The notes below the pieces were generated by a model. It saw nothing but the letters and a program-made list of their open reading frames with translations. It ran no database searches and was not told the DNA's origin. Source: Felis catus (Eukaryota). From it: a stretch of DNA of 64,000 bases. The number at the start of each line of letters is the position of its first letter. The stretch's first letter is position 1. The stretch covers positions 92,196,001 to 92,260,000 of the forward strand of contig NC_058368.1 of assembly GCF_018350175.1 (NCBI RefSeq). Reading direction: 5' to 3'. Positions 1 through 15,619 of the stretch are shown here, one piece after another. Made by a program: the position numbers and the translations under genes.

Positions 1-70
1 AGAAGCTAGATTTCCAGCAGGTCCATGGAGCTAAGCTCCCTGACTCCCACCTTTGGTTCCCCCGTTCCAG

Positions 71-217
71 GCCATTCACTTGGATATGCAGTTGGGTGAA
101 CGCAGCAACGATTACGTGGAGTTTGCAGCCAAGGACAAGCTGACCCAGCTGCATCTGCGTGTCCAGCAGCTTGTGGAGCAGGTGGAGTTGATCCAGAAGG
201 AGCAGGAATACCAGAGG
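71..217 (+). CDS. TMED9-like: TMED9-like p24-alpha gene, penultimate exon (exon 4 equivalent; end of GOLD domain and coiled coil)
   Basis: ttccag|GCC...CAGAGG|gtgagg; 147 nt, phase 0/0; [49 protein letters not shown] resembles TMED9 [24 protein letters not shown]...; upstream exons are outside the window. Confidence 0.9.
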
Positions 218-360
218 GTGAGGGGCTGGGTTGGGCTGGCACAGTTGGGACGGAGGATGTGTCACCTCCTGGGAAGGGAAGCTTCCCGCTCTTCCCCCAG
301 AGTGGGTGGGGGTGCAATTCAGTTCCGGACGCGTATCTACTCCCTTCTCCCCTCCCACAG

Positions 361-510
361 TGGCGAGAGGAGCGCTTCCGGCAGACCAGCGAGAGCACCA
401 ACCAGCGGGTGCTGTGGTGGTCCATTCTGCAGACCTTCATCCTTGTGGCCACAGGTGTCTGGCAGATGCAGCACCTCAAGAGTTTCTTTAAAGCCAAGAA
501 GCTGGTGTAG
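361..510 (+). CDS. TMED9-like: TMED9-like p24-alpha gene, last coding exon (TM helix, FF motif, KKxx ER-retrieval tail)
   Basis: ctcccacag|TGG after a 143-nt intron; [52 protein letters not shown] at 508-510. Confidence 0.92.
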
Positions 511-1229
511 GTGGGCCCCAGAAACCCAGCCCCAACTCATTCCCCTTCTGTTCACTGATGGGAAGTGGCCTGGCTTGGTCTATTTCCTGGTTCCCAACCC
601 CCCAACCCTGCAGGGCTTCCTTGCTTACTGGCAGGGGGACAGAGGACTTCTTTGAACTGGTTTCTCAGCCAGCACTTGGGAAAGGATGGGTTTCCCACTA
701 AACGCTTGGTCGGGGAGCTGAAGGATTCTGTGTGGCTCTGTGCTGCTGAGGAGGGTGACGGGACCCCATCCCCAGGCTAAACCAGATGGATGAACTATCC
801 CAAGATGGAGAATTAAGAGTGAATTATAAACTGCAGACTCTCTGACCTAAGCATTTATTGCCTCCTACTCTGCAATTCATTCCGGTGTTTTGTTTCTAAT
901 CAGATATTGATAGGTGTGTGAGGCCCCACATGTACTGGTGGGGGCTGATCCCAAAATGGATGGGGTGAAGGAAGCTTGTACTCCAAAAGCCTTAGCAACT
1001 TGTGGAGTCCTTTCCAGAAAAGTCCAATTTGGGTCCATCTTATGGGTAACCTGAGTGCTTGTGCGGATCCTCTGTCTCTTTCTGGGGTTGGGTCGAGTTC
1101 ATGTGCTATTCTAGCCACTTGGACTGCTGGGTTCTTCCAGGAGGTCAGGTGGGCACCTCTGTCTTCCTACTATTTTCTGCCAATCTGTGTCTCTCTTTGT
1201 GATGTCACTGGTTGATTTTTTTCAGGAGA

Positions 1230-1582: not shown

Positions 1583-1588
1583 AATAAA
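1583..1588 (+). promoter_or_regulatory. Candidate polyadenylation signal of the + TMED9-like gene
   Basis: First canonical AATAAA I found downstream of the stop at 510; usage unverified. Confidence 0.3.
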
Positions 1589-2242
1589 ATCAAGTCCAAA
1601 TCATCAAGGCCAAGGGAGACTCCCCATTAGGAGGGGGAAGTTGTGACAAACCCTGCTCTTGGCCCCTGGGACAGACACAACCTCCCCTAAGATACTCTTG
1701 AGGGACGCTGCAAGCCTTGGAGATATTGCTCATTTGTGGGTGTGGTCATGACTGGCCTCTGGAAAGTATGAATGGACTGAACTGAAGGCTGAGGGAAACC
1801 ACTAGAGAGTAACCAGAGTATGTGATCATAGGGTCCATTACCCTTACTTGAAGCTGGTGCATATGTGTGTGTGGGGGGAGGGGGGTGCTCTGCTGTCTGC
1901 CACAGGAGAAGCAGAGTGATCCAGAAAGGCACACTCTTGCACACGGAGCCTCTGGTCTGACACCAAATGAGGCAGGGCTTGAACAACAGCTAAGGGTGAT
2001 GCATGCTTCTGAGGAGAAGGCTGTGCACTAAGATTGACATGATTGGAACTCTAGCCTAGTCTAGATGGTCAGGAAATGCTGCTTTTTAGAATTGCATTTA
2101 TGATTAGGAGTTAGCTGGAAGAAGTGTGTTCTGGCCAGAGGGAATAGCACCTACAGAAGCCCTAAGGCAAAAAAGAATATGGCAATTTGGGGAAACTGAA
2201 AGGAGGCCACTATATCATAATCCCGACTCTAAGAGAGACCAC

Positions 2243-2321
2243 AGGACAGATATGGTGTTTGCTGGGGGTATGGGAGGTGAAAGTGAACCTGCCTTCAGCC
2301 ATACTGCCCCACCAACATGAC
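2243..2321 (-). pseudogene. TMED9P: TMED9 pseudogene, exon 3 remnant (frameshifted, truncated)
   Basis: Reverse strand ctctctag|GTCATGTTGGTGGGGCAGTATGGCTGAAGGCAGGTTCACTTTCACCTCCCATACCCCCAGCAAACACCATATCTGT = VMLVGQYG*, then shifted [17 protein letters not shown]; TMED9 has [26 protein letters not shown]. Confidence 0.85.
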
Positions 2322-2490
2322 CTAGAGAGAAAGGGCTTCAGCGAGTGTTACAAGGAGGATGGGGCTGGAAGGAAACAGGGCTTAAGGCTCTCACTGCCTC
2401 CAAAGTTAGCAAACAGAGCCTTAGGCACTCCACAACACTAAAAGGAAGGTCCAGAGATGCTCAGCAGCAGTTGCCGAAAACTTATCTGAC

Positions 2491-2685
2491 AGGGTGCCTC
2501 GGTGGCTCAGGTGATTGAGCAGAGGATTCTTGATTTCTGCTCAGGTCATAATCCCAGGGTCATGGGATCGAGCCCTGTCACAGGCTCCACGTTGAGCATG
2601 GAGCCTGCTTAAGATTCTCTCTCTGTGCTCCTCTCCCCCTCTCTTGCAGGGACACACTCTCTCTCTTAAAAAAAAAAAAAAAAAA
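2491..2685 (+). mobile_element. Can-SINE
   Basis: gggtgcctcggtggctcag head, CT tract, polyA tail. Confidence 0.9.
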
Positions 2686-3004
2686 GCTTATCTAGCAAGG
2701 GAGAAGAGTCTGAGAAGAGGCTGAGATGTGACTGCTTCTGGGAAGGGCTTTCCTTCATTCAGAGCTCCTGCTCTTTCAACTCTTTTGGGGTGACTCCATT
2801 GTTAAATGAAAGGGGACAACTAAAGATTTGTTTTCCTTTGTTTTAATATCCTTATCTGGCGAAACTAACAGTTGCTTCATCGTTTTGGAAAGCACTCTGT
2901 CCTGTGAAACCTTAAAGTCTGGATGCCACAGCGTTAGAGTTGACAAAATTCTTTGACTGCCAGCACCACAATTAAGGCACCAACCACACCTGTAAGATAG
3001 GTGA

Positions 3005-3120
3005 GTTTCCATTTCACAGACCAGGAAACCGGCTCAGGGAAGCTCAGTGACTTGGCAGAGTCACGCAGCAGTCGGTAAGAGGTTGAGAGGAGCCGCTAGC
3101 ACTGCAGCAGCCCAAGCTTG
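3005..3120. mobile_element. MIR SINE fragment in pseudogene intron 2
   Basis: ccatttcacagaccaggaaaccggctcagggaagctcagtgacttggcagagtcacgcagc resembles the MIR core. Confidence 0.6.
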
Positions 3121-3276
3121 GCCTAGAGCGCAAAGCCGGGCGCGATCTTCTCACAACACCCAACTGTCTTCAGCAGTTCAGCAGATGCGGCAACTGGGAG
3201 GGGAAGTACCAGCACCTGCCTGGTCTGGCGCCTAAGCGCAGGGCGGAGGGCTCCGCGGGCTTTGGGGCCGGCTCAC

Positions 3277-3377
3277 CTTGTCCTCTGGGTCCTTCACCTC
3301 CACGAACATGCCGAGCCCGGGGGTGGCCGGCTGGTACTCCTCCCGCTGCTTGTCATACAGCTGCGTCCGGTAGTTTC
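3277..3377 (-). pseudogene. TMED9P: TMED9 pseudogene, exon 2 (intact, 101 nt)
   Basis: ctccag|GA AAC TAC CGG...GAC AAG|gtgagc = (G)[33 protein letters not shown], matching TMED9 exon 2 as recalled. Confidence 0.9.
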
Positions 3378-3514
3378 CTGGAGGTCAGATGAGCGCGAGG
3401 TGGCATGGAGTCGGCCCACGCCAGGACGCGGCGAGACCGGCTGCTCCCGGCTCTGGAAGAGCTGACTCTCCCCACCCCAAGGTCTTGTTCCAAACTCTCC
3501 CCCTCCGCCCGCAC

Positions 3515-3635
3515 CTATAATTATGGTCTCGTCTGGAATCTCTTCAATAAAGCTCTTTGTGGTCTCCCCGATATAGAAGTCAAGCCCGCCTTCACTGGGC
3601 GCAAAACACCCTTCCCACTCGCACTTGGCATCCAC
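3515..3635 (-). pseudogene. TMED9P: TMED9 pseudogene, exon 1 remnant
   Basis: [24 protein letters not shown] G|gtgcgg vs TMED9 [25 protein letters not shown]; one codon lost, Cys to Ser, no signal peptide, no in-frame ATG before an upstream in-frame TAG near 3724. Confidence 0.85.
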
Positions 3636-3720
3636 CCTAGTCTCGGCAGCCGCAGCAGGCGGCGCGTGGTAACCTTGACGCCGCCGCGGGACATGCCGGG
3701 ATAGCGAGTTCGACCAGCTG

Positions 3721-3740
3721 GACTACAAGTCCCGAGATGC
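3721..3740 (+). promoter_or_regulatory. ZNF143/THAP11-type promoter motif in the CpG-rich region upstream of the TMED9 pseudogene
   Basis: GACTACAAGTCCCGAGATGC matches ACTACAnnTCCCnnnATGC; CpG-rich about 3130-3860. Confidence 0.65.
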
Positions 3741-4012
3741 CCCGCGGCCTCTGCCGGGCATTACCAGAATAGGGAGCTGCTACTCCCTGGAGTCGAATTG
3801 GCGCTCCTGAATTGAAACCTTTGCGTGTATCTTCTTGGTGATCCGGCAAGTGGTAGCGATTCTCAGCTTTTTACAGATGCTGCAAGTATCTGCAGTATGT
3901 TTGTGGTCGCAGTGAATCATGAGCTCATACAGGATTGAAACCGAGGATCCCTGACTTTCCTCGGCATTGCAAGAGTGCACGAATTTATCTTTGAAAAAAA
4001 AAATTAAAAAGA

Positions 4013-4164
4013 GGGGGGCACCTGGGTGGTTCAGTCCTTTAAGCATCCGACTCTTGATCTCGGCTCAGGTCATGATCTCACGGTTTGTGGATTTGAGCCC
4101 CATGTCAGGCTTTACGCTGACAGCGCAGCGCCTTCTTGGGATTCCCTCTCTCCCTCGCCTGCTT

Positions 4165-4221
<57 letters not shown>

Positions 4222-4255
4222 ATAAATAAACCTAAAACAAAACAAAACAAACAAA
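4013..4255 (+). mobile_element. Can-SINE (SINEC_Fc) with long (CT)n
   Basis: ggggcacctgggtggttcagtc head, (CT)n 4168-4217, A-rich tail. Confidence 0.92.
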
Positions 4256-4671
4256 GCCTGGGAGACTCTCTTTACCATTTCCTTGCCTCCCAAACCCATC
4301 CACTCCTAAATCTCATCTACTCTGGTCTGTATGGCTCCAGGAAACAGCCCCCCTTCCCAACCAGGTAAAGGAGTATTAATGGGGGTCTTGGGGCAGAGTC
4401 ACCCCGTTTTGGAGAGCTCTGTGCTCAGTGTGAGATCAGCAGAGTTCTGAATACCCTGGTTTTACTGTCCTTCCTGGATTTTATACAAATTCTACCGTAT
4501 TTTGGCAGGTCTTGGAGTTAGCAGTTTATGATTGTGCCATGTCAAGGTTTTACAGAAATCATAGGTGTTCTCTCTAATTTACATCCTCTTTGGTGTTTTG
4601 TTTGGCCCTAAGAAGAAAATTTGATGAGAATGTGTTGACATTTCCCCCTCATTGGAAGTCTTTACCTCATT

Positions 4672-4680
4672 TTTCTTTTT

Positions 4681-4744
<64 letters not shown>

Positions 4745-4925
4745 ATTGCTTATTTATTTATTTTGGAGGGAGGGAGGGACAGAGAGAGAGAGAGAGAATC
4801 ACAGGCAGGATCCCCATTGTCACTGCAGAGCCCGATATGGGGCTGCATCTCAGGAACTGTGAGTTCATGACTTGAGCTGAAATCAAGAGTTAGATGCTTA
4901 AGTGACTGAGCTACCCAGAGGCCCC
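4672..4925 (-). mobile_element. Can-SINE with (TTTC)n microsatellite tail
   Basis: (TTTC)n 4672-4742 followed by reverse SINE body. Confidence 0.9.
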
Positions 4926-5294
4926 ACCATTTTTTTTAACAGTAACAATATAACATAATCGTGGTTCATACAGTCTTTATTTTTTTAACCATTCCTCTGA
5001 TGAAGTGGTTAAATTTTCTTCCCCCCTAATTATTTGCTCTTTTGTATTGCTGAAATAAAAATTCATGTTCATTTTCTAAAAAAGCATTACTGTAGGACAT
5101 AGTTTTTTGATAAGAGATCACAAAATTGTCCTTTCAAACTTTGTGCCAATTTATAGTCTCAGCAACAGTGTTTCCTGGTGCTTATTCTCCACCCTCTGGT
5201 CAAACATTTTCAAGCTTTTTAATCTTTGCAAAATCAGTGGATGAAAAGTTGTATTTCCCTTTATTTACCACTTATTTCCTTTCCTTCCCACCCT

Positions 5295-5347
5295 TTTAAT
5301 TTTTTTCTTTTTTGTTTATTTATTTTTGAGAGAGAGCACACACAGAC

Positions 5348-5386
<39 letters not shown>

Positions 5387-5519
5387 CATAGAATCTGAAG
5401 CATACTCCAGGCTCTAAGCTGTCAGCACAGAGCCTGACGCGGTGCACCAACCCATGAACCATGATATCATGACCTGAGCCGAAGTTGGCTGCTTAGCCAA
5501 CTGAGCCACCTCGGCTCCC
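5295..5519 (-). mobile_element. Can-SINE (SINEC_Fc)
   Basis: Reverse body with (GA)n, ending gagccacctcggctccc. Confidence 0.9.
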
Positions 5520-5724
5520 TCCCGTCCTTTTAATTTTTGTTTCCTCAGATACTGAGTATGTCTTATTGGTCATTTGATTTCTTCTGTGAATTGCTGATTG
5601 TGTTTTTCTTGGTGTCATTACAACTACATGCTATTAGTGTTGATGTAACCATCATTCAGAATTAACAAATGATTGCAGAGTTAATAAATGATAATATTTT
5701 ATAAGAGCTTATAGTATTTGTAAA

Positions 5725-6140
5725 ATTAAACTTTTTATGTTGAGATAATTATAGATTCACAAGAAACAACACAGTTGCAAGAAACAACACAGAGAGATCC
5801 AGTGTACCAATTACCCAGTTCCCCCATTGTAAATCTTGCCCAAGTATAATGCAATATCACAAACAAGACATTGACATTGATACAGTCAAGACACAGAACA
5901 TTTCCATCACCACAGGAATATAATATTGACCTGTTGTAGCCTACCTTCCTACTCCTTTACCCCATCTTTAACCCCAGATAACAACGAGTCTATGTTCTAC
6001 ATTTCTATGATTTTGTCATTTCAAGAATGTTCTATAAATGGAATCATACAGTATGCAACCTTTTGAGATTGGTCTTTTCCACTAAGCATAACTCTCTTGA
6101 GATTTATTCAGTTTATTGCATGTTTCAACAGCTTCTTTTT
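5725..6140 (-). mobile_element. Old L1 (L1M-type) 3' end
   Basis: ttatagattcac...ataaatggaatcatacagtatgcaaccttttgagattgg is typical of an antisense L1M 3' UTR. Confidence 0.75.
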
Positions 6141-6511
6141 ATAGGAAAAGTAACCATTACACACAATGAATAAAGTTATAATTCTGTGATATCCACAACG
6201 GATAGGTAAGAACAGAGCTGTTACAAGAGCAGAGTTTTTGTGTGTTACTGAAGGTAAACTGGTATAAATTCAAATCTGAGTGAGATAACTTTAGGATGTT
6301 AAATGTCATCTCGGTGGTAATCACAAAGAAAATAGCCATAGGAAATACACAAAAGGAATTGAGAAAGGAATTTAAATGATTCACTACTAAAAAATTAACT
6401 AAATGCAAAGAAGACAGCAAATGTAGGAAGTGGGGGACAGAAAAAGCTGTAAGGCAAATAGAAAACAAAATAGCAAACAGCAGAAAGAAGTCCTTCCTTA
6501 TCAGCATTTAC

Positions 6512-7159
6512 TTTTAATTTTTTTGAGAGGCCGGGGGAGGGCAGAGGGAGAGGGAGTGAGAGAATCTCAAGCAGGCTCCATGCTCAGTGCAGAGCCCAAT
6601 GCAGGGCTCGATCTCACAGCCATGAGATCATGACTTGAGCTAAAATCAAGAGTTGGACACTTAGCTGACTGCGCTACCCAGGCATCCCCGTATCAGTAAT
6701 TACTCAAAAATTTCTTTAACGTTTATTTATTTTTGAGAGACGGAAATAGAGTGCCAGCGGGGGAGGGGCAGAGGGAGAGGGAGACATAGAATCCGAAGCA
6801 GGCTCCAGGCTTCAAGCTGTCAGCACAGAGCTGGATGGGCTCGAACCCACAAACTGTGACATTGTGACCTAAGCCAAAGTCGGATGCTTAACCGACTGGC
6901 TACCCAGGCACCCCTCAGTAATTATTTAAATGTAGATGCATTAGGGGCATCTGGATGACTCAGTAAGTTGAGCTTCCGACTTCAGCTCAGGTCATGGTCT
7001 CGCAGTTCATGAGTTTGAGCCCTGCATAGGGCTCTGTGCTAACAAACAGCTCAGAGCCTGGAGCATGCTTTGGATTCTGTGTGTGTGTCTCTCTCCCCCT
7101 CCCCTGCTCATGATCTGCCTCTCTCTGTCTCTCAAAAATAAATAAATGTTAAAAAAAAA
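6512..7159. mobile_element. Three adjacent Can-SINEs (-, -, +)
   Basis: Bodies at about 6512-6689(-), 6710-6914(-), 6944-7159(+). Confidence 0.88.
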
Positions 7160-7663
7160 GTTAAATGTAGGTGCATTAAATTCTTTAATCAAAAGACAAA
7201 GGTTGGGAAAATGGATAAAATCATGACCCAACTATATGCTGTCTCTAAGACACTCACTTTAGACCCAGAGACAAAAATAGGTTTGAAAGTGCAAGAATAG
7301 AAAAAGCTATTCCACATAAACAGTTACCAGAATAGAGCAGGGAGTCTATACTAGTATCAGACAAAATAGACTTTAAATCAAAAAGGTTACAAGGTATGGT
7401 AATGGTACAAAAAGAGCTACATAGATTTATGCAACAGGATAGAGTCCATAAATAAACCCACATTTATATGGTCAACTAATTAACAAAGGAAGCAAGAATA
7501 TATAATGGAGAAAATAAATCTCTTCAATAAATGGTGTTGGGAAAACTGGCAGCTATATGCAAAAAAAAAAAAAAAAAAAGTGAACCACTTTCTTACACCA
7601 TACACAAAATAAACCCCAAAGGAATTAAAGGCCTAAATATAAGATCTAAAATCATAAATCTTC

Positions 7664-8620
7664 ATGGGAAAAGATATTTGCAAATGACATATCGGACAAA
7701 GGGCTAGTATCCAAAATCTATAAAGAGCTCACCAAACTCCACACCTGAAAAACAAATAACCCAGTGAAGAAATGGGCAGAAAACATGAATAGACACTTCT
7801 CTAAAGAAGACATCCGGATGGCCAACAGGCACATGAAAAGATGCTCAACGTCGCTCCTCATCAGGGAAATACAAATCAAAACCACACTCAGATATCACCT
7901 CACGCCAGTCAGAGTGGCCAAAATGAACAAATCAGGAGACTATAGATGCTGGAGAGGATGTGGAGAAACGGGAACCCTCTTGCACTGTTGGTGGGAATGC
8001 AAACTGGTGCAGCCACTCTGGAAAACAGTTTGGAGGTTCCTCAAAAAAATTAAAAATAGACCTACCCTATGACCCAGCAGTAGCACTGCTAGGAATTTAC
8101 CCAAAGGATACAGGAGTACTGATGCATAGGGGCACTTGTACCCCAATGTTTATAGCAGCACTCTCAACAATAGCCAAATTGTGGAAAGAGCCTAAATGTC
8201 CATCAACTGATGAATGGATAAAGAAATTGTGGTTTATATACACAATGGAGTACTACGTGGCAATGAGAAAGGATGAAACATGGCCCTCTGTAGCAACGTG
8301 GATGGAACCAGAGAGTGTTACGCTAAGTGAAATAAGCCATACAGAGAAAGACAGATACCATATGTTTTCACTCTTATGTGGATCCTGAGAAACTTAACAG
8401 AAACCCATGGGGGAGGGGAAGGAAAAAAAAAAAGAGGTTAGAGTGGGAGAGAGCCAAAGCATAAGAGACTCTTAAAAACTGAGAACAAACTGAGGGTTGA
8501 TGGGGGGTGGGAGGGAGGGGAGGGTGGGTGATGGGTATTGAGGAGGGCACCCTTTGGGATGAGCGCTGGGTGTTGTATGGAAACCAATTTGACAATAAAT
8601 TTCATATATTGAAAAAAATA
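7664..8620 (+). mobile_element. Young 5'-truncated feline-type L1 (ORF2 C-terminus plus 3' UTR)
   Basis: ORF2 text [18 protein letters not shown]...[28 protein letters not shown]...; G-rich 3' UTR; TSD ataaatcttc at 7654-7663 and 8621-8630; in-frame TGA and a frameshift. Confidence 0.93.
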
Positions 8621-8638
8621 ATAAATCTTCTAAAGAAT

Positions 8639-8851
8639 GGGGCACCTTGGTGGCTCAGTGGGTTAGGCATCCGACTTTGGCTCAGGTCATGATCTCGCGG
8701 TTTGTGAGTGCTGACAGCTCAGAGCCTGGAGCCTGCTTCGGATTCTGTGTGTCTCTCTCTGCCCCTCCGCTGCTCTGTCTCTGTCTCTGTCTGTCTATCT
8801 GCCTCTCTCTCTCACTCTCTCAAAAATAAATAAACACTAAAAAAAAAAAAA
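8639..8851 (+). mobile_element. Can-SINE
   Basis: ggggcaccttggtggctcag head, A tail, degenerate TSD cttctaaag. Confidence 0.9.
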
Positions 8852-9212
8852 CCTTCTAAAGGATAACATAGACAGCAATCTCTGGGGCATTGATCTTAGA
8901 AACATATTTATGAAAGGGAAAGCAAGGGAAACAAAAGCAAAATTAAACTGTCAGGACCGTGTCAAACTGAAAAGCTTTTTGCACATCAAAGGAAACCATC
9001 CATAAAATGCACAGGCAACCTACTGAATGGGAGAAAATGTTTGCAAATGATGTATCTGATAAAGGGTTAATATCTAAAATATATGAAGAGCTCATACAAT
9101 TCCACACCAACAAATCTCACAAGAACAAAGAAACAACCCACCCCCCCCAAACAATATGACTAAAAAACAGATAGAAGGGGCGCCTCGGTGGCTCAGTTCT
9201 CGTCCAATTCTT

Positions 9213-9428
9213 TTTTCAACGTTTTTTAATTTTTTTAATTTTTGGGACAGAGAGAGACAGAGCATGAACGGGGGAGGGGCAAAGAGAGAGGGAGACACAG
9301 AATCGGAAACAGGCTCCAGGCTCCCAGCCATCAGCCCAGAGCCCGACGCGGGGCTCGAACTCCCGGACCGCGAGATCGTGACCTGGCTGAAGTCGGACGT
9401 TTAACCGACTGCGCCACCCAGGCGCCCC
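9213..9428 (-). mobile_element. Young SINEC_Fc inserted into the head of an older + SINE (9177-9560)
   Basis: Perfect 18-bp TSD agttctcgtccaattctt at 9195-9212 and 9429-9446; CpGs retained. Confidence 0.93.
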
Positions 9429-9925
9429 AGTTCTCGTCCAATTCTTGATTTCGGCTGAGTCTGCTTTGTATTCTGTCTCTCCCTCTCTCTCTGCCCCTCC
9501 CATCCTCCCTCCCTCTCTCTCAAATTAAATAAATAAACATTAAAAAAATAAAAAAAATAGAGGACCTGAATAGACATTTTTCGAAAGAGACAAACAGATG
9601 GCCAACAGACACATGAAAAGATGCTCAACATCACTAATCATCAGGGAAGTGCAAAACAAAATCACAATGAGATATCACCCCCCAGGAGTCAGAATGGCTA
9701 GAATCAAAAAGACAAGAAAAAACAAGTGTTGGTGAGGATGTGAAGAAAGGCAATTCTTGCGATTATTGGTGGGAATGTAAACTGATGCAACCACTGTGGT
9801 AAATGATATGGAGATTCCTCAAAAACTTGAAAATATAAATACCACACAGTCCAGTAATCCCACTACTGGGCACCCAAAGAAAACGAAAACACTAATTTGA
9901 AATCCCTATATTCATTGCATCATTA

Positions 9926-11620
9926 TTTTGAGAGAAAAATAGAGAGTGAGCAGGGGAGGGGCAGGGGGAGAGGGAGACAGAATTCCAAGCAGGCTCTAAG
10001 CTGTCAGTGCAGAGCTCAAAGTGGGGCTCGAACTCCTGAGCTGTGAGATCATGACCTGAGATGATATCAAGAGCCAGACGTTTAACCCACTGAGCCACCC
10101 AGGCTCCCCTGAAGTATGTACTTTATATGAAACCCAATTTATTCTTTTGTGGTTTGTGCTTTTGGTGTCACATCTAAAACAAATCTTTCTCTAATCCCAG
10201 GTTGCAAAAATTTTCTGTTATGTTTTCTTCCAGAAATTTTACAGTTTTAGCTCATATTTAGATAAGGGCCTGTAATTCATTTTGAGTTAATTTTTTTGTG
10301 TGATGTGAAGTAAGGTTTGATATTATCATTATTAAAAAAATTTCTTATAAAAATGTTTTTAATCTTTATTTTGAGATACAGAGCGTGAGCAGGGGAGAGG
10401 CAGAGAGAGAGGGAGACACAGAATCTGAAGCAGGCTCCAGGCTCTGAGCCATCAGCACAGAGCCTGACGTGGGGCTCAAACCCACGAGCAAGATCATGAC
10501 ATGAGCTGAAATTGGATGCTTAACCAACTGAGCCACCCAGGTGCCCCTAAAAAATTTTTTTAATGTCTATTTATTTTTGAGAGAGAGAGAAAGAGAGAGA
10601 GAGAGCGAGAGAGAGCGCATGAGTGGGAGGAGGGGCAGAGAGAGAGGAGACACAGAATCCAAAGCAGACTCCAGGCTCTAAGCTGTTAGCATAGAGCCCG
10701 ATGCGGGGCTCGAACCCATGAACTGTGAGATCATGACTTGAGCCGAAGTTGGACACTTCACTGACTGAGCCACCCAGGTGCTCCTATTATTATTATTATT
10801 ATTTTTATAACAATGTTTTTAAAGTAGGTTCCATGCCCTGCATGGGCTTGAACTCACAACCCTGAGATCAAGAGTCACATACTGCACTGAGCCAGCCGGG
10901 TGCCCCAGGTTTGATAGTACTTTTAAATTTTTATTTGCATTTGGCCATTTAATTGTTCAAACACCATTTGTTAGAAAGGCTATCCTTTCTCCTTTGGACT
11001 GTCTTTTTTCACCTTCGTCGAAAGTCAGTTGTACAAATACATGTGGGTCTGTCTCTGGACTGTATTCTGTACTGCTAATCTACTTACCTATCTTTATGTC
11101 AATACCATGCTGCAGTTTTTTTTTAATTAAAAAATATTTTTATTTATTTTTGAGAGGGAGAGAGACAGAGCACGAGTTGGGTAGTGGCAGAGAGAGAGAG
11201 AGGGAGACACAGAATCTGAAGCAGGCTCCAGGCTCTGAGCTGTCAGCACAGAGCCTGATGCAGGGCTTGAACTCATAAACCACAAGATCATGACCTGAGC
11301 TGAAGTCAGACGCTTAACCAACTTAGCCACCCAGGTGTCCCTTTACCATGTTGTGTTGTTAAATGTGGCTTTATAATAAGTCTTTAAATCAGGTAGTTTT
11401 AGTCCTCAAACTGTTTTTTTTTTTTCTATTTTCAAGTTGTTTTGGCCATTCTAGTGCATTTCCATATGAAACATCATATTGTTAATTTTTTAGTAAAAAA
11501 ATGTGCTGGGCTTTTGAGTGGGGTTTTGTTGAATTTATAGACCAATGTGAGGAAAATTATTATCTTAACATTAGTGAGTCTTCTGGCCCCTGAACACGTG
11601 TATCTTTTCATTTATGTAAT
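9926..11620 (-). mobile_element. Antisense old L1 fragments peppered with about five antisense Can-SINEs
   Basis: L1 text ttgtgcttttggtgtcacatctaa, caccatttgttagaaaggctatcctttctcc; SINEs at about 9926, 10355, 10555, 10800, 11116. Confidence 0.8.
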
Positions 11621-12129
11621 CTTTAATTTTTTTATTCCTTATCATCTTCTTTTGTAGTTTTTGGTTATTTAAATCAGTCGAATGGAATAAGATAGTTCAC
11701 TTTTTTTCCTGTACATGCTTTGCTAGCTATTCACAGATAATCACAGTGAAAAGTGAGGCCAACCTGAAAGTGACATATATCATTTCAATTCACTACCCAT
11801 TTGCTGAAGCTAATCATATGTAAGGGGGCCAGGAAGTACAATTCTTTTTTTTTTTTTAAGTTTATTTTTGAGGCAAGGGGAGGGGTGGAGAGAGAGGGGA
11901 CAGAGGATCTGAAGTGGGCTCCGAATTGACAGTAGAGAGCCTGATGCAGGGCCTGAACCCACAAACTGTGAGATCACCACCTGAGCCGAAGTCATGACCA
12001 GTGCCGAAGTCGGATACTCAACCGATTGAGCCACCCAGGAGCCCCCAGGAAGTACAATTCTCCTACCCACTTGGAAAAGAAGCAAGCCAGAAATATTTGG
12101 TGAACATCACTGATGATTATCATAACTTC

Positions 12130-13285
12130 CTTGGTTGCTGACCTAATAGCTATTCTCCATCCCTTATTACTGGCTAAGAGAACCCTAATTTTGTCTACTC
12201 TCTTCTGGGTGACATCTGCTACAGAAAAGACCACACTTTTCATGGTAATCCCATTCATTTCTCTTTGGTGGTTATTGGATTAGCCATATTCTGGCTACAA
12301 GACAAAAGGATGTCTACTCCTGGGACTTCTGAGAAGTCTCTTAGGGACATCAGAGGGACAACTGGGTGGCTCAGTTGGTTAAGGATCTGACCTCGGCGCA
12401 GGTCATGATTTCACGGTTTGTGAGTTTGAGTCCCACATTGGGTGAGCTCGAGCCCCACTTCAGGTGAGTCCCACCTCTGTCTCTCTTTCTATGTGCAGAC
12501 ATGGGATTCTGTCTCTCTGCCCTCACTCACTTGCACCCTCTCTCTCTCTCAAAAAGAAAAAAAAAAAAGGACATCAGAGGGGCACCTGGGTGGCTCAGTT
12601 GGTTAAGTGTTCAACTCTTGATTTCAGCCTAGGTCATGATTCATCAGATTGAGCCCTATGTCGGGCTCTGCGCTGTCAGCACAGAGCCTGCTTGGGATTC
12701 TCTCTCTCCCTCTCCCTGCCACTCCTCTACTCATTCTCTCTCTCCCTTTCAAAATAAATAAATAAATAAACATTAAAAACAAAAAAAGGATATCAGGCAG
12801 TGGGCAGTTACTGTTCTTGCCCTTTATTTGGTGGTGTGTTATGATGTGATTACCTAGATGTGCAACCAAGAGAGGAGTGGCAAACACTCTCAGGATGGCA
12901 GAGGGGTAAGGTGGACAGATGCTAGGTGACTGAGGGCATCATGTGCCATGTTGAAATAATCAACCCTGGAACCACCCTACCCTTAGACTTCTTGTTATAT
13001 AAGGTAAGAAATGTCCTTACTTGGGTCTTTTTTTTTTTTTTTTTTTAAGAGAGAGAGGGAGAGAGTAAATGGGGCAGGGGCAGAGAGACAGGGGAACAGA
13101 AGATCTGAAGCAGGCTATGTGCTGACAGCAAAGAGCCTGATGTGGGACTCGAACTCACAAACTGTGAGATCATGACCTGAGCGGAAGGCAGACACTTAAC
13201 TGACTGAGCTGCTCAGGCGCTCCACTTGGGGTCTTTTTTGCTTGGGTTTTCTGTCTATTGAAGTAAAAAGCATTGAACTATAACA
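12130..13285 (+). mobile_element. ERVL-class solo LTR (LTR33/LTR16-like) split by three Can-SINEs
   Basis: Start tggttgctgacctaatagctattctccatcc...agaaccctaattttgt; end ttagacttcttgttata...ttgggttttctg...aaaagcattgaactataaca; SINEs 12354-12568(+), 12579-12787(+), 13027-13222(-). Confidence 0.6.
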
Positions 13286-14549
13286 GAATGCTAAGGCTGA
13301 GCCAGGAGCCAGGAATTACGGTAAGCACTTCATCTGCATAAAGGTAATATAATCTGATTTCATCCCGGTAATAACACTGTGACATGGGTGTTATCAGATC
13401 CATTTTATGGATGGGGAAATTAAAGCACAGGGAGGTTAAATAATTACATGAGGCTACACAATTCTAAGTGGTAAAAACAAGGATGAAAACTTTAGGTCTA
13501 TTCTATGTCAAGGATAACTTGAAATCATTTGTAAATATCCTATACGTTCCCTACTTTAATTTTTTCTCTGAAGCACATGTAAAAAGAATTGTGGTGTTTC
13601 ACCTTCAGCACCCAGATATTTCCAGGGGTAAGGAAAAATACCAGAGAATGTAGGAGCTGGTTAACCTTATAATTTATTGCTACCTACCTTTGGACAAGTA
13701 TTTTTTATTTGAATGAACATATTCCCTATTCTTCGTAGGCACCAGGAATATAAGCATTTAGGCATTTAAAAAAAGCTTTAATTTTTTTTATCTTGAGAAA
13801 GAGAGAGATAGAGAGCATGTGTACCAGGCTTGCAGGGTAGGGGAAGAGAGAAAGAGAGGGAGAGAGAAAATCCCAAGCAGGCTCTGTGCTGTCAGCATGG
13901 AGTTCGAAGATTTTTGGCATTTGTTTAAAAAGAAAGGAAAGAATGAAAGAATGAACACAACATTAAATCAATGCTTGATACTTACATATTATACCATATT
14001 CACAACAATCCTATAAAATGAGTATTCAATATATCTACTTACAGATGGGAAACCTGAACTTCAGCGTAAGTAGTCAAGCCACAAAACTAATGAATGATGG
14101 AGCCAATAAATGATGAAACTAAGAAGTTTTGGAGTGAGATTGAAAACAATATGTGTCTGGCCCCATATAAAATGTTTTGTCACAGGGGTGCCTGGCTGGC
14201 TCAGTCGATGGAGTATGTGACTCTTGATCTCCCGGTTGAGAGTTTGAGCCCCACATTGGGTGTAGAGATTACTTAAAAATAAAATAATATAAAAGGAATT
14301 TAAAAAAATAAGTAAAAATGTTTTATCACAGCATATCTGGTGCATCCAGATATTATCTACCATCTGAGTTTTGTCTTGGAATGAAGCTGGCCTTCATTTT
14401 CTGCTTATTCAGAACTCATTCTAGTTGCCAACCAACCAAAGAGATTAGGAGTTCAAGGATTATGAAGAAAGTTTTCAGAGGGTAGAGATGAATAATCCCA
14501 ATTCCAGATTCTAAAATATGGCTAACCAATGAATATTTCTCTGCAGTTT

Positions 14550-15090
14550 TTAGTTGCTGATGAAACCGACAAACAAGATAAAGGTTCCTGCGCTTGAGCT
14601 TATATTCTAATAAAAAGAGCAAATTATAAATAAATAAAATAATTTCAAACAGTGGTGAGAGTGATAACAGATCGATGTGAGAGAGCCTGTCTAGGTAACT
14701 GAATCCTGCCTTAAATGACAAGAAAGTGGCATCCACATGGGGTACTGGGAGGAAGATTGTCCTATGCAGGAGGAAACTATACAAAGTGGAAAGTTCCCTG
14801 ACGGTAATGAACTTGGTGTGTACAAGGGAAAGAAAGTAGTGCATTTGAGCACTGTAAGTGAACATGAGAGTGGTGGAGATGAGATTCCTTGGAGGTAGGG
14901 CAGAGGCCAGTTCAGGCAGGGTCCTGAGACTGTCATGGTAAAAAATTGAGGGTTTTTAGTAGTTGCAATGGAGCACTACTGGAGTGCTTTATGTAGGAGG
15001 GTTATCCTACCTGGCTTATATTTTTAAAAAGATCACTCTGGTTGCTCTCTGCAGAATGGATCATGGGAAGGCCCGAGTGGAAGCAGTTAG
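14550..15090. mobile_element. L2 LINE fragment
   Basis: ttttaaaaagatcactctggttgctctctgcagaatggat and related L2 hallmark text. Confidence 0.7.
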
Positions 15091-15259
15091 GGTGGCTGTG
15101 ACTAGGTTTATGTTAATGGAGTTGTATATAAGCAAGTCCAAACTCTCACAATCTTTGACCTTCCAAAATAAAGGGTTCCACCTTCCTATTCCATCATCTC
15201 AACTAACACTTATAACTATCATCTAACCATGTACTTGTTTATTGTCTGTCATTCTCATT

Positions 15260-15441
15260 TAGGATGGTCACATAAAATACGAGCGCTCTGTTAAAACTGC
15301 ATTTCAGGTAGAATAACTTATTTTTACTATAGGTGTTCCCAAATATTGCATGGGAAATTCGAATACTAAAAAAACTATTCGTCATCTGAAATGCTAACAA
15401 ACTGGGCAGCCTGCATTTTTATGAGCTAAATCTGGCAACGT
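15260..15441. mobile_element. MER53-like hAT MITE (palindromic)
   Basis: ataaaatacgagcgctctgttaaaactgcatttcag...cccaaatattgcatggga...ctgaaatgctaacaaactgggcagcctgcatttttatgagctaaatctggcaac. Confidence 0.7.
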
Positions 15442-15619
15442 GACCCCCACTAGAATGTGAGTTCCATACGGGAAGGAACCGCGTCTGTCCGTGCCCCAAC
15501 GTACACCTTGGGCTTAGCGTAGTGCCTGTCCGAACACGGTGGGAGCGCACACCTGCTCACGGAATGAATTAAAAAAGGATTTAAGGAAAGAATGAGTCAG
15601 TGAATAAAAGGCTGCACGA

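Follow-up and report, generated by a model that had tools for sequence, protein, structure and literature searches.

Background

Does the cat genome carry, beside TMED9, a further functional p24-alpha gene, and if so, in which part has its product changed? The question is raised by the beginning of the stretch of DNA analysed here (the window; 64,000 nucleotides of Felis catus contig NC_058368.1, positions 92,196,001 to 92,260,000 of the forward strand; window position = genome position (G000:C1) minus 92196000). A preliminary description, made from the letters of the window, had recognised two exons at positions 71 to 510 as the end of a diverged TMED9 paralog, and had proposed a lineage-specific duplicate with changes concentrated in the lumenal coiled coil and hence, possibly, with new partners or cargo. 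It also proposed that exons 1-3 be assembled, that carnivore orthologues be sought, and that a p24-alpha tree and a selection test be made. Reviews of the family, as far as their accessible text goes, put the number of mammalian or vertebrate TMED genes at ten, three of them alpha members (TMED4, TMED9 and TMED11; PMC7045115, PMC13601593). The gene at the start of the window is referred to as the paralog below.

Results

Structure of the gene

The paralog of the cat consists of five coding exons (130, 101, 126, 147, and 150 nt), of which exons 1-3 were located 0.5-1.5 kb before the window. These upstream exons are intact, neither disabled nor absent, and complete an uninterrupted reading frame of 654 nt for a 217-aa protein. 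All of the introns (4/4) are of the GT-AG type, and exons 2-5 have the same sizes as those of TMED9. Exons 4 and 5 are open and in phase 0 (exon 4 is bounded by AG and GT; exon 5 ends with TAG), and the clean splice sites, open frame, and TM, FF and KKxx signals first noticed at 71-217 and 361-510 were confirmed. The features are as follows.

G000:C1:92194470-92194599: exon 1, coding part; start ATG, predicted 19-aa signal peptide, C49, E52Q, CpG island
G000:C1:92194965-92195065: exon 2
G000:C1:92195396-92195521: exon 3; C121 kept, N125 sequon lost
window 1..70, plus strand: 3' end of intron 3 (whole intron, 549 nt)
window 71..217, plus strand: exon 4 (147 nt); last GOLD strand, linker, first part of the coiled coil
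window 218..360, plus strand: intron 4 (143 nt); resemblance to TMED9 only in the last ~15 nt
window 361..510, plus strand: exon 5, coding part (150 nt); end of the coiled coil, TM helix, FF and KKxx tail, R223Q, E230K
window 1583..1588, plus strand: putative poly(A) signal, the first AATAAA past the stop codon

The CpG island is the gene's own. The N-terminus (19-aa leader) and the TM segment are hydrophobic, and the leader is presumably cleaved. An internal GT donor at window 182 in exon 4 yields isoform X2, shorter by 12 residues; the Felis catus RefSeq model (isoform X2, P0010) equals the paralog protein minus 12 residues. The 203-aa ORF at window 44-652 was also considered as a gene and was rejected, being exon 4 read through the intron. 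In the 3' UTR, the stretch at window 611-667 resembles the 3' UTR of TMED9 (score 56; shuffle maximum, 30), as a remnant or a shared element.

EMP24_GP25L (PF01105) spans the mature chain (E 2.4e-49, profile positions 1-182 of 182), as determined with the leopard orthologue (P0056; 196/198 identical to the window protein). The layout of p24/TMED proteins was found in full, namely a GOLD beta-sandwich with C49-C121, a coiled coil, a single TM helix, and a short tail, with the putative signal peptide in front; F229, K232, and K233, expected of p24-alpha members, are present in 27/27 paralog rows of the alignment described below. A PDB sequence search with the paralog gave E-values of 1e-96 to TMED9, 3e-20 to TMED10, and 4e-13 to TMED2, the best matches being 9CJK/9CJL and 21GL/21GM (TMED9). 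The entries 21GL/21GM, on which no paper was found, hold TMED9, TMED10, and TMED2 chains together and offer a template for mapping the paralog changes onto a p24 heteromer. The AlphaFold2 model of the leopard orthologue (mean pLDDT 73, pTM 0.47) shows a beta-sandwich and a long helix, and its fold matches were the GOLD structures of p24beta1, delta1, gamma1, and gamma2. The ESM Atlas search returned generic emp24 clusters only.

The neighbouring TMED9

The true TMED9 was found upstream of the window.

G000:C1:92181544-92184619, minus strand: TMED9, 235 aa, head-to-head with the paralog

The ATG codons of the two genes are 9.9 kb apart on opposite strands. The mature chain of cat TMED9 is identical (198/198) to that of macaque, mouse, squirrel-monkey, ferret, and horseshoe-bat TMED9, and downstream of the gene lies a glycosyltransferase-7 gene (B4GALT family), which we take to be B4GALT7 from its motifs and synteny. 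A near-invariant mature chain and a place beside B4GALT7, as expected of a TMED9 orthologue, thus belong to the minus-strand gene and not to the paralog, of which the mature chain is identical at 140/198 residues to TMED9 and at 125/198 to TMED4. The exon-5 search of the cat genome (2.43 Gb, 71 contigs) gave six matches: the window's own exon, TMED9 on the minus strand (92%, 15 kb upstream), a TMED4-like gene (C2), a TMED11-like gene (C11), a disabled copy of the paralog (C1:172.62 Mb), and a distant exon (C15) presumably belonging to TMED10.

Compared with TMED9 of the same genome, 14/49 residues of exon 4 and 4/49 residues of exon 5 (including E230K) differ; over exons 3-5 (140 residues), the paralog is identical at 107 positions to TMED9, 97 to TMED4, and 75 to TMED11. 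The preliminary description had given about these counts for the two exons against human TMED9, with the E to K change in the tail, had held TMED9 to be nearly invariant in mammals, had seen no closer resemblance to TMED4 or TMED11, and had regarded the gene as an intact extra p24-alpha paralog; on all of these points the present data agree with it.

Species range

The range was examined in a 90%-cluster protein collection (53/56, 80/118, and 55/102 candidates passed) with additional cluster look-ups. Orthologues were found in six laurasiatherian orders, i.e., Carnivora and Pholidota (felids, meerkat, dog, bears, pinnipeds, mustelids; pangolins), Perissodactyla and Cetartiodactyla (horses, rhino, pigs, camels, hippo, whales, deer, bovines), rhinolophoid bats, and Eulipotyphla (mole, desman, shrews), and also in Lagomorpha (rabbit, hare, pikas). 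The paralog is therefore at least boreoeutherian (Laurasiatheria and lagomorphs), and its earlier designation as a lineage-specific duplicate is not upheld. Among the matches listed from primates, rodents, Afrotheria, Xenarthra, marsupials, and non-mammals, there was no orthologue; this absence is suggestive only, because the range of the largest orthologue cluster (54 members) was drawn from the 15 listed and unannotated or pseudogenised copies cannot appear. A 50%-cluster search gave no further paralog-type lineage in the 145 sequences examined, at a level of clustering that would absorb such members.

The models named 'transmembrane emp24 domain-containing protein 9-like' in RefSeq and UniProt correspond to the paralog (XP_023110004.2, cat X3; XP_019295713.1, leopard; F1MTJ7, cattle; G1SWP8, rabbit). 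Most orthologues bear this label, which is automated only; models of horse, pig, cattle, rabbit, and Rhinolophus bear the plain name TMED9.

The models of sheep, goat, ibex, argali, takin, and oryx are abnormal at the start of exon 3 (P0108, P0125, P0133, P0053, P0054, P0086, P0052), and a shared loss or decay in this clade is probable. Together with the lack of a primate or rodent orthologue among the listed matches, these broken models suggest that the paralog is dispensable in several lineages. Caprines, the clade in which the paralog seems to decay, have a separate TMED9-derived copy on another contig of chromosome length (P0165, P0166, P0167; cluster of P0118; 184/198 to TMED9). The orthologues of shrews (P0105, P0106) and leporids (P0135, rabbit; P0109, hare) evolve much faster than those of most orders: shrews and rabbit are identical to the window protein at 160-162/198 positions, and most other orders at 181-196/198. 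The lagomorph orthologues keep E230.

Location of the protein changes

The alignment contained the window protein and 26 orthologues (27 paralog rows), and 13 TMED9 rows; the caprine TMED9-derived copy (cluster of P0118) was counted as a TMED9 row here and in the trees. The paralog differs from TMED9 at 44/109 positions of GOLD, 4/11 of the linker, 6/45 of the coiled coil, 2/20 of the TM helix, and 2/13 of the tail, and only 6/14 of the exon-4 changes fall in the coiled coil. Hence, the changes are not concentrated in the coiled coil, as had been thought, but in GOLD. The cat paralog GOLD differs from that of horse at 0/109, mole at 3/109, cattle at 4/109, and rabbit at 21/109 positions, while cat and horse differ outside GOLD at 3/45 (coiled coil), 4/11 (linker), and 3/20 (TM) positions. 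The same 109 positions of TMED9 show 7-8 differences from fish TMED9 and 18 from TMED4. The large distance from TMED9, with approximately 0-4 differences among several orders, points to a burst of change on the stem followed by freezing, and by these counts GOLD changed more on the paralog stem than between TMED9 and TMED4.

The preliminary reading, in which a carnivore-specific duplicate found its novelty in the coiled coil and hence in the choice of oligomer partners, can appeal to the 6/45 differences in that region and to N183E, fixed in 27/27 paralog rows. We regard it as highly improbable, with GOLD three times as divergent as the coiled coil and with orthologues in horse, pig, whales, cattle, bats, moles, shrews, rabbit, and pika.

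TMED9 has been reported to bind misfolded MUC1-fs at the open beta1/beta2 edge of GOLD, and E52R to reduce its cargo binding strongly (PMC11414720). In the beta1/beta2 strands of the paralog, 8/17 positions are changed with respect to TMED9. These include E52Q, found in 25/27 paralog rows (the other two lack exon 1); E is present in 13/13 TMED9 rows and in 59/81 distant p24-alpha-like sequences. The replacement by Q is far milder than E52R, and the cargo contact of E52 is mostly main-chain, as judged from an AlphaFold model. C49 and C121 are kept. The N-x-S/T sequon of GOLD, which TMED4, TMED9, and TMED11 have (a typical feature rather than a formal criterion of the alpha subfamily), is absent from the paralog: N125 is replaced in 27/27 rows, and the mature chain has no sequon in 26/27, the hare having a new one elsewhere. 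The N125 sequon is used as a glycan site.

The residues that build the coiled-coil trimer, the inter-trimer contacts, and the PIP site of TMED9 have been named (PMC11414720). According to these lists, the paralog keeps 4/4 hydrophobic core residues of the coiled coil, 6/6 core residues of the coiled coil and TM helix taken together, and 14/14 intra-trimer hydrogen-bond residues, and 4/14 inter-trimer contacts are changed. R223 is replaced in 21/27 paralog rows (Q in the window protein) and kept in 6/27; Q177 is Q in 10/27.

Selection

A copy of the paralog with which its rate of change can be compared is the disabled one at C1:172.62 Mb (L019 795-3873; G000:C1:172622295-172625373). It holds exons 2-5 with introns (no exon 1 was found there), carries frame-breaking indels, and has introns 76-83% identical to those of the paralog. 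Over 166 codons since the split, 39 amino-acid changes and 5 stops fell on the disabled copy versus 5 amino-acid changes on the paralog branch, with two unclear (39 vs 5, binomial p 1.4e-7). Between paralog and TMED9, pN (0.21) is also lower than pS (0.56) in exons 1-4. The reading frame thus appears to be under strong purifying selection, as judged from the TMED9 and disabled-copy comparisons and the orthologue proteins. Orthologue DNA was also sought in metagenome contigs, where one weak match (54% over 24 codons) was obtained from 39 candidate stretches and was left out.

These counts bear on the alternative of a decaying or non-translated duplicate (a transcribed pseudogene), conserved through recent origin or slow carnivore rates. 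The start codon is unstable outside Carnivora (see below) and the caprine and oryx models are broken, as such a duplicate would predict; however, the excess of changes in a copy whose introns are only 76-83% identical, the GOLD identity across orders, and the intact frame and splice sites make it most improbable.

Phylogeny and age

For the trees, takin was left out, the first 24 columns of pika and hare were masked, and TMED11 was represented by exons 3-5 only. In the maximum likelihood trees, the 26 paralog rows formed one clade (98-99% ultrafast bootstrap) with a stem of 0.31 substitutions/site. The root position of the clade differs between trees: with exons 1-4, it lies outside TMED9+TMED4 (support, 83), and with the full mature chain it is nested among TMED9s with low support (42-48). 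NG86 dS to TMED9 was 1.02, which is near saturation (GC3, about 0.8), and no date was taken from it. As synonymous sites are nearly saturated and the roots disagree, the date of the paralog is soft.

The first of these placements would suit an ancient p24-alpha lineage, at least as old as the TMED9/TMED4 split, whose 3' end was overwritten by conversion from TMED9. The pS of 0.56 is close to saturation and near that between TMED9 and TMED4 in exons 1-4 (0.64), and introns 1-3 do not align with those of TMED9 above shuffled controls. At the 48 conserved diagnostic sites, 81 distant p24-alpha-like sequences (of 145) favour the paralog state at 12; they favour the TMED9 state at 34, however, so that most of the paralog changes are derived. 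In addition, at the 25 sites of exons 1-4 that discriminate TMED9 from TMED4, the paralog agrees with TMED9 at 13, with TMED4 at 3, and with neither at 9; positions 93 and 99 have the eutherian TMED9 residues, E and A (D and S in marsupial and fish); no non-boreoeutherian member was seen among the protein-cluster matches or the 145 sequences examined; the full mature-chain tree nests it among TMED9s; and its long stem invites attraction to TMED11. We therefore consider an ancient lineage very unlikely. The agreement at 13 versus 3 sites, E93/A99, and the species range point to an origin on the eutherian stem, where the paralog most likely arose as an inverted tandem duplicate of TMED9.

Probable gene conversion in exon 5

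Exon 5 is identical to that of TMED9 at 138/150 nt. Synonymous differences from TMED9 are fewer in exon 5 (8/32) than in exons 1-4 (56/101; Fisher p 0.004). Since exon 5 is far closer to TMED9 (pS 0.25) although TMED9 and TMED4 reach a pS of 0.51 there, its similarity probably comes from an old gene conversion by TMED9. Two other explanations were considered. Synonymous constraint is unlikely for the same reason (0.51 vs 0.25), and recent conversion was rejected: of the 12 differing sites, the disabled copy shares the paralog base at 8 and the TMED9 base at 3, so any exon 5 conversion predates the disabled copy. The kept C-terminal half of the paralog may partly reflect conversion, not selection.

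Duplication and surroundings

Downstream of the paralog, the window contains the trace of a second, larger duplication.

window 2170..2245: head-to-tail junction of an old tandem duplication (unit, ~14.9 kb; G000:C1:92183312-92198170)
window 2245..6390, minus strand: disabled TMED9 5' fragment (upstream DNA, damaged exon 1, exon 2, half of exon 3)
window 2880..3400, minus strand: recent conversion tract in the fragment (exon 2 and flanking introns; 519/521 nt identical to TMED9)

The duplicated unit extends from the middle of TMED9 exon 3, with the 5' half of TMED9, to 1.7 kb past the paralog stop. Outside the converted tract, identity of the fragment to the real TMED9 region is mostly 65-96% in bins of 100 nt. 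The tract shows conversion at this locus independently of exon 5. The region at window about 5750-5950, with 95-96% identity to TMED9, may be an older tract. The fragment also keeps a CpG-rich promoter region facing the 3' end of the paralog, from which a truncated or convergent antisense transcript could arise; reads from exon 2 of TMED9 will also map to the fragment.

On this evidence, the second copy of the unit was later split, so that the TMED9 fragment stayed and the paralog half is now 80 Mb away; the disabled copy and the fragment in the window would mark a chromosomal break through the old tandem duplication. The disabled copy lies 62 kb from a FAM193 match; we take TMED9 and FAM193B to be adjacent in human. 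The repeat-rich region at window about 6400-15500 must hold the breakpoint between the TMED9 block and a YTH-domain gene on the plus strand (CpG island from window about 15500; first exon from about 15960 onward; YTH match at G000:C1:92276751-92277794), presumably YTHDC2 from its N-terminus.

Translation start and transcripts

Met at the start position of the paralog is present in carnivorans only, and Leu is found in the ungulate, bat, pangolin, and rabbit models. The non-carnivoran models have leaders of 14-155 residues or an internal Met start (23 proteins). As many of them lack a convincing in-frame ATG, the full-length product is uncertain outside Carnivora. In the cat, an out-of-frame ATG lies 25 nt before the start and opens a 52-codon overlapping ORF that ends at the exon 1/2 junction; the same upstream ATG (25 nt) is shown by the non-carnivoran models that are out of frame. 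If the in-frame residue is Leu as in relatives, the start codon would be CTG in goat and porpoise and TTG in deer and pika. Outside the cat, start codons were deduced from protein models, not from DNA, and faults of assembly or annotation may account for some of the cases. The mustelid, pangolin, Rhinolophus, and cattle models have the upstream ATG in frame, which would mean repeated independent gains of an AUG.

The annotation gives isoform X2 in 11 carnivore records and a form that skips exon 3 in 8; as a rule, RNA alignments underlie RefSeq isoforms. Two Logan-derived proteins cross exon junctions, P0095 (five exons, 1277-nt contig) and P0003 (exons 2-3), an indirect sign of spliced RNA in relatives; other Logan-derived proteins read through introns. 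P0095, of the bovine type, switches to TMED9-type residues within exon 5, as an assembly chimera or a recent conversion allele.

Discussion

In our opinion, the paralog is probably a functional fourth mammalian p24-alpha subunit with altered cargo preference, with assembly and cycling like those of TMED9, and with fewer large homo-oligomers. In the proposed course of events, an inverted tandem duplicate of TMED9 would have undergone a burst of change in the lumenal GOLD domain and then come under strong purifying selection. The protein would be a type I membrane protein cycling between ER and Golgi by means of FF and KKxx; its coiled coil and TM helix, essentially of the TMED9 type, would bring it into p24 complexes, either in the alpha position or in mixtures with TMED9, and it would present an unglycosylated GOLD with a rebuilt beta1/beta2 edge. 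From such a GOLD, different cargo is expected, probably in a restricted tissue, and octamers and dodecamers of the TMED9 type would form less readily, given the four inter-trimer changes and the change at the PIP-binding R223. The phrase 'new partners or cargo' therefore remains the best reading of the sequence. A more specific version, in which the fourth member, retained in most boreoeutherian orders, sorts cargo that TMED9 does not and has its synthesis gated by the upstream AUG and, outside Carnivora, by a CUG/UUG start, is tentative and less likely than not; if it were true, the paralog would act as a cargo receptor under regulation, possibly by stress or tissue, and would serve as a GOLD swap made by nature for asking what p24 GOLD domains recognise.

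The main alternative is a modulator or decoy, which would co-assemble with TMED9 by way of the conserved coiled coil, bind cargo poorly, and, with no cargo of its own, dilute TMED9 entrapment and higher-order oligomers. This would accord with fixed changes at the cargo-binding (E52) and oligomer-growth (Q177, R223) residues, of which the TMED9 mutants are reported to be defective in cargo binding or oligomer growth (PMC11414720), and the conserved upstream out-of-frame ATG suggests a low, regulated output. However, a decoy needs no GOLD that is frozen (0/109, cat-horse) while the coiled coil (3/45), linker (4/11), and TM helix (3/20) drift, and Q177 and R223 are still present in 10/27 and 6/27 rows, respectively. 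A decoy role is thus rather doubtful.

The paralog is already in automated annotation, and its existence is not new; the apparent novelty lies in recognising it as an orthogroup of its own, conserved and with a rebuilt cargo domain. A search that included the accessions, mostly over titles and openings of abstracts, found no published description (a 2009 Mol Biol Evol survey of vertebrate p24 genes may mention it) and no paper treating the 'TMED9-like' models as a distinct orthogroup. The main text of PMC9888432 gave no match for 'paralog' or 'duplicat'.

As a fourth alpha member, the paralog would be the eleventh TMED gene in cats, dogs, horses, pigs, cattle, whales, and rabbits, possibly missed because it seems to be absent from human and mouse. 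In several of these species it goes under the name TMED9, which can lead studies of orthology, expression, or knock-outs astray; large-animal models may depart from human and mouse at the TMED9 locus. With a stalk, TM helix, and tail close to those of TMED9 and a GOLD changed at 40% of positions and then frozen, it offers a test bed for the roles of GOLD, E52, and the N125 glycan. As a drug target, TMED9 is of interest for its entrapment of misfolded cargo, and a natural variant without the entrapment residues would be useful.

Comparison with the known p24-alpha members

With TMED9 (p24alpha2, gp25L2), the paralog shares the sizes and phases of exons 2-5, C49-C121, the coiled-coil core, the TM helix, and the FF/KKxx tail. 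It differs from TMED9 in being a gene of the opposite strand, in its GOLD diverged by 40%, in E52Q, R223Q, and E230K, in the absence of the N125 sequon, in its leader (19 aa vs 37 aa), and in its patchy distribution, whereas TMED9 is universal and almost invariant. TMED4 (p24alpha3) belongs to the same subfamily and has the same exon sizes, but it is located on another contig (C2), keeps both E52 and the N125 sequon, and is far closer to TMED9 (165/198). TMED11 (p24alpha1, gp25L) is, like the paralog, a divergent alpha member dispensable in some lineages, and its human copy is described in the accessible text of a review as probably non-functional (PMC13601593). A few exon-3 states, such as P104, Q105, S114, R128, and K136, are shared by the two; TMED11, however, lies on contig C11, is identical to the paralog at only 75/140 residues over exons 3-5, and has kept the N125 sequon.
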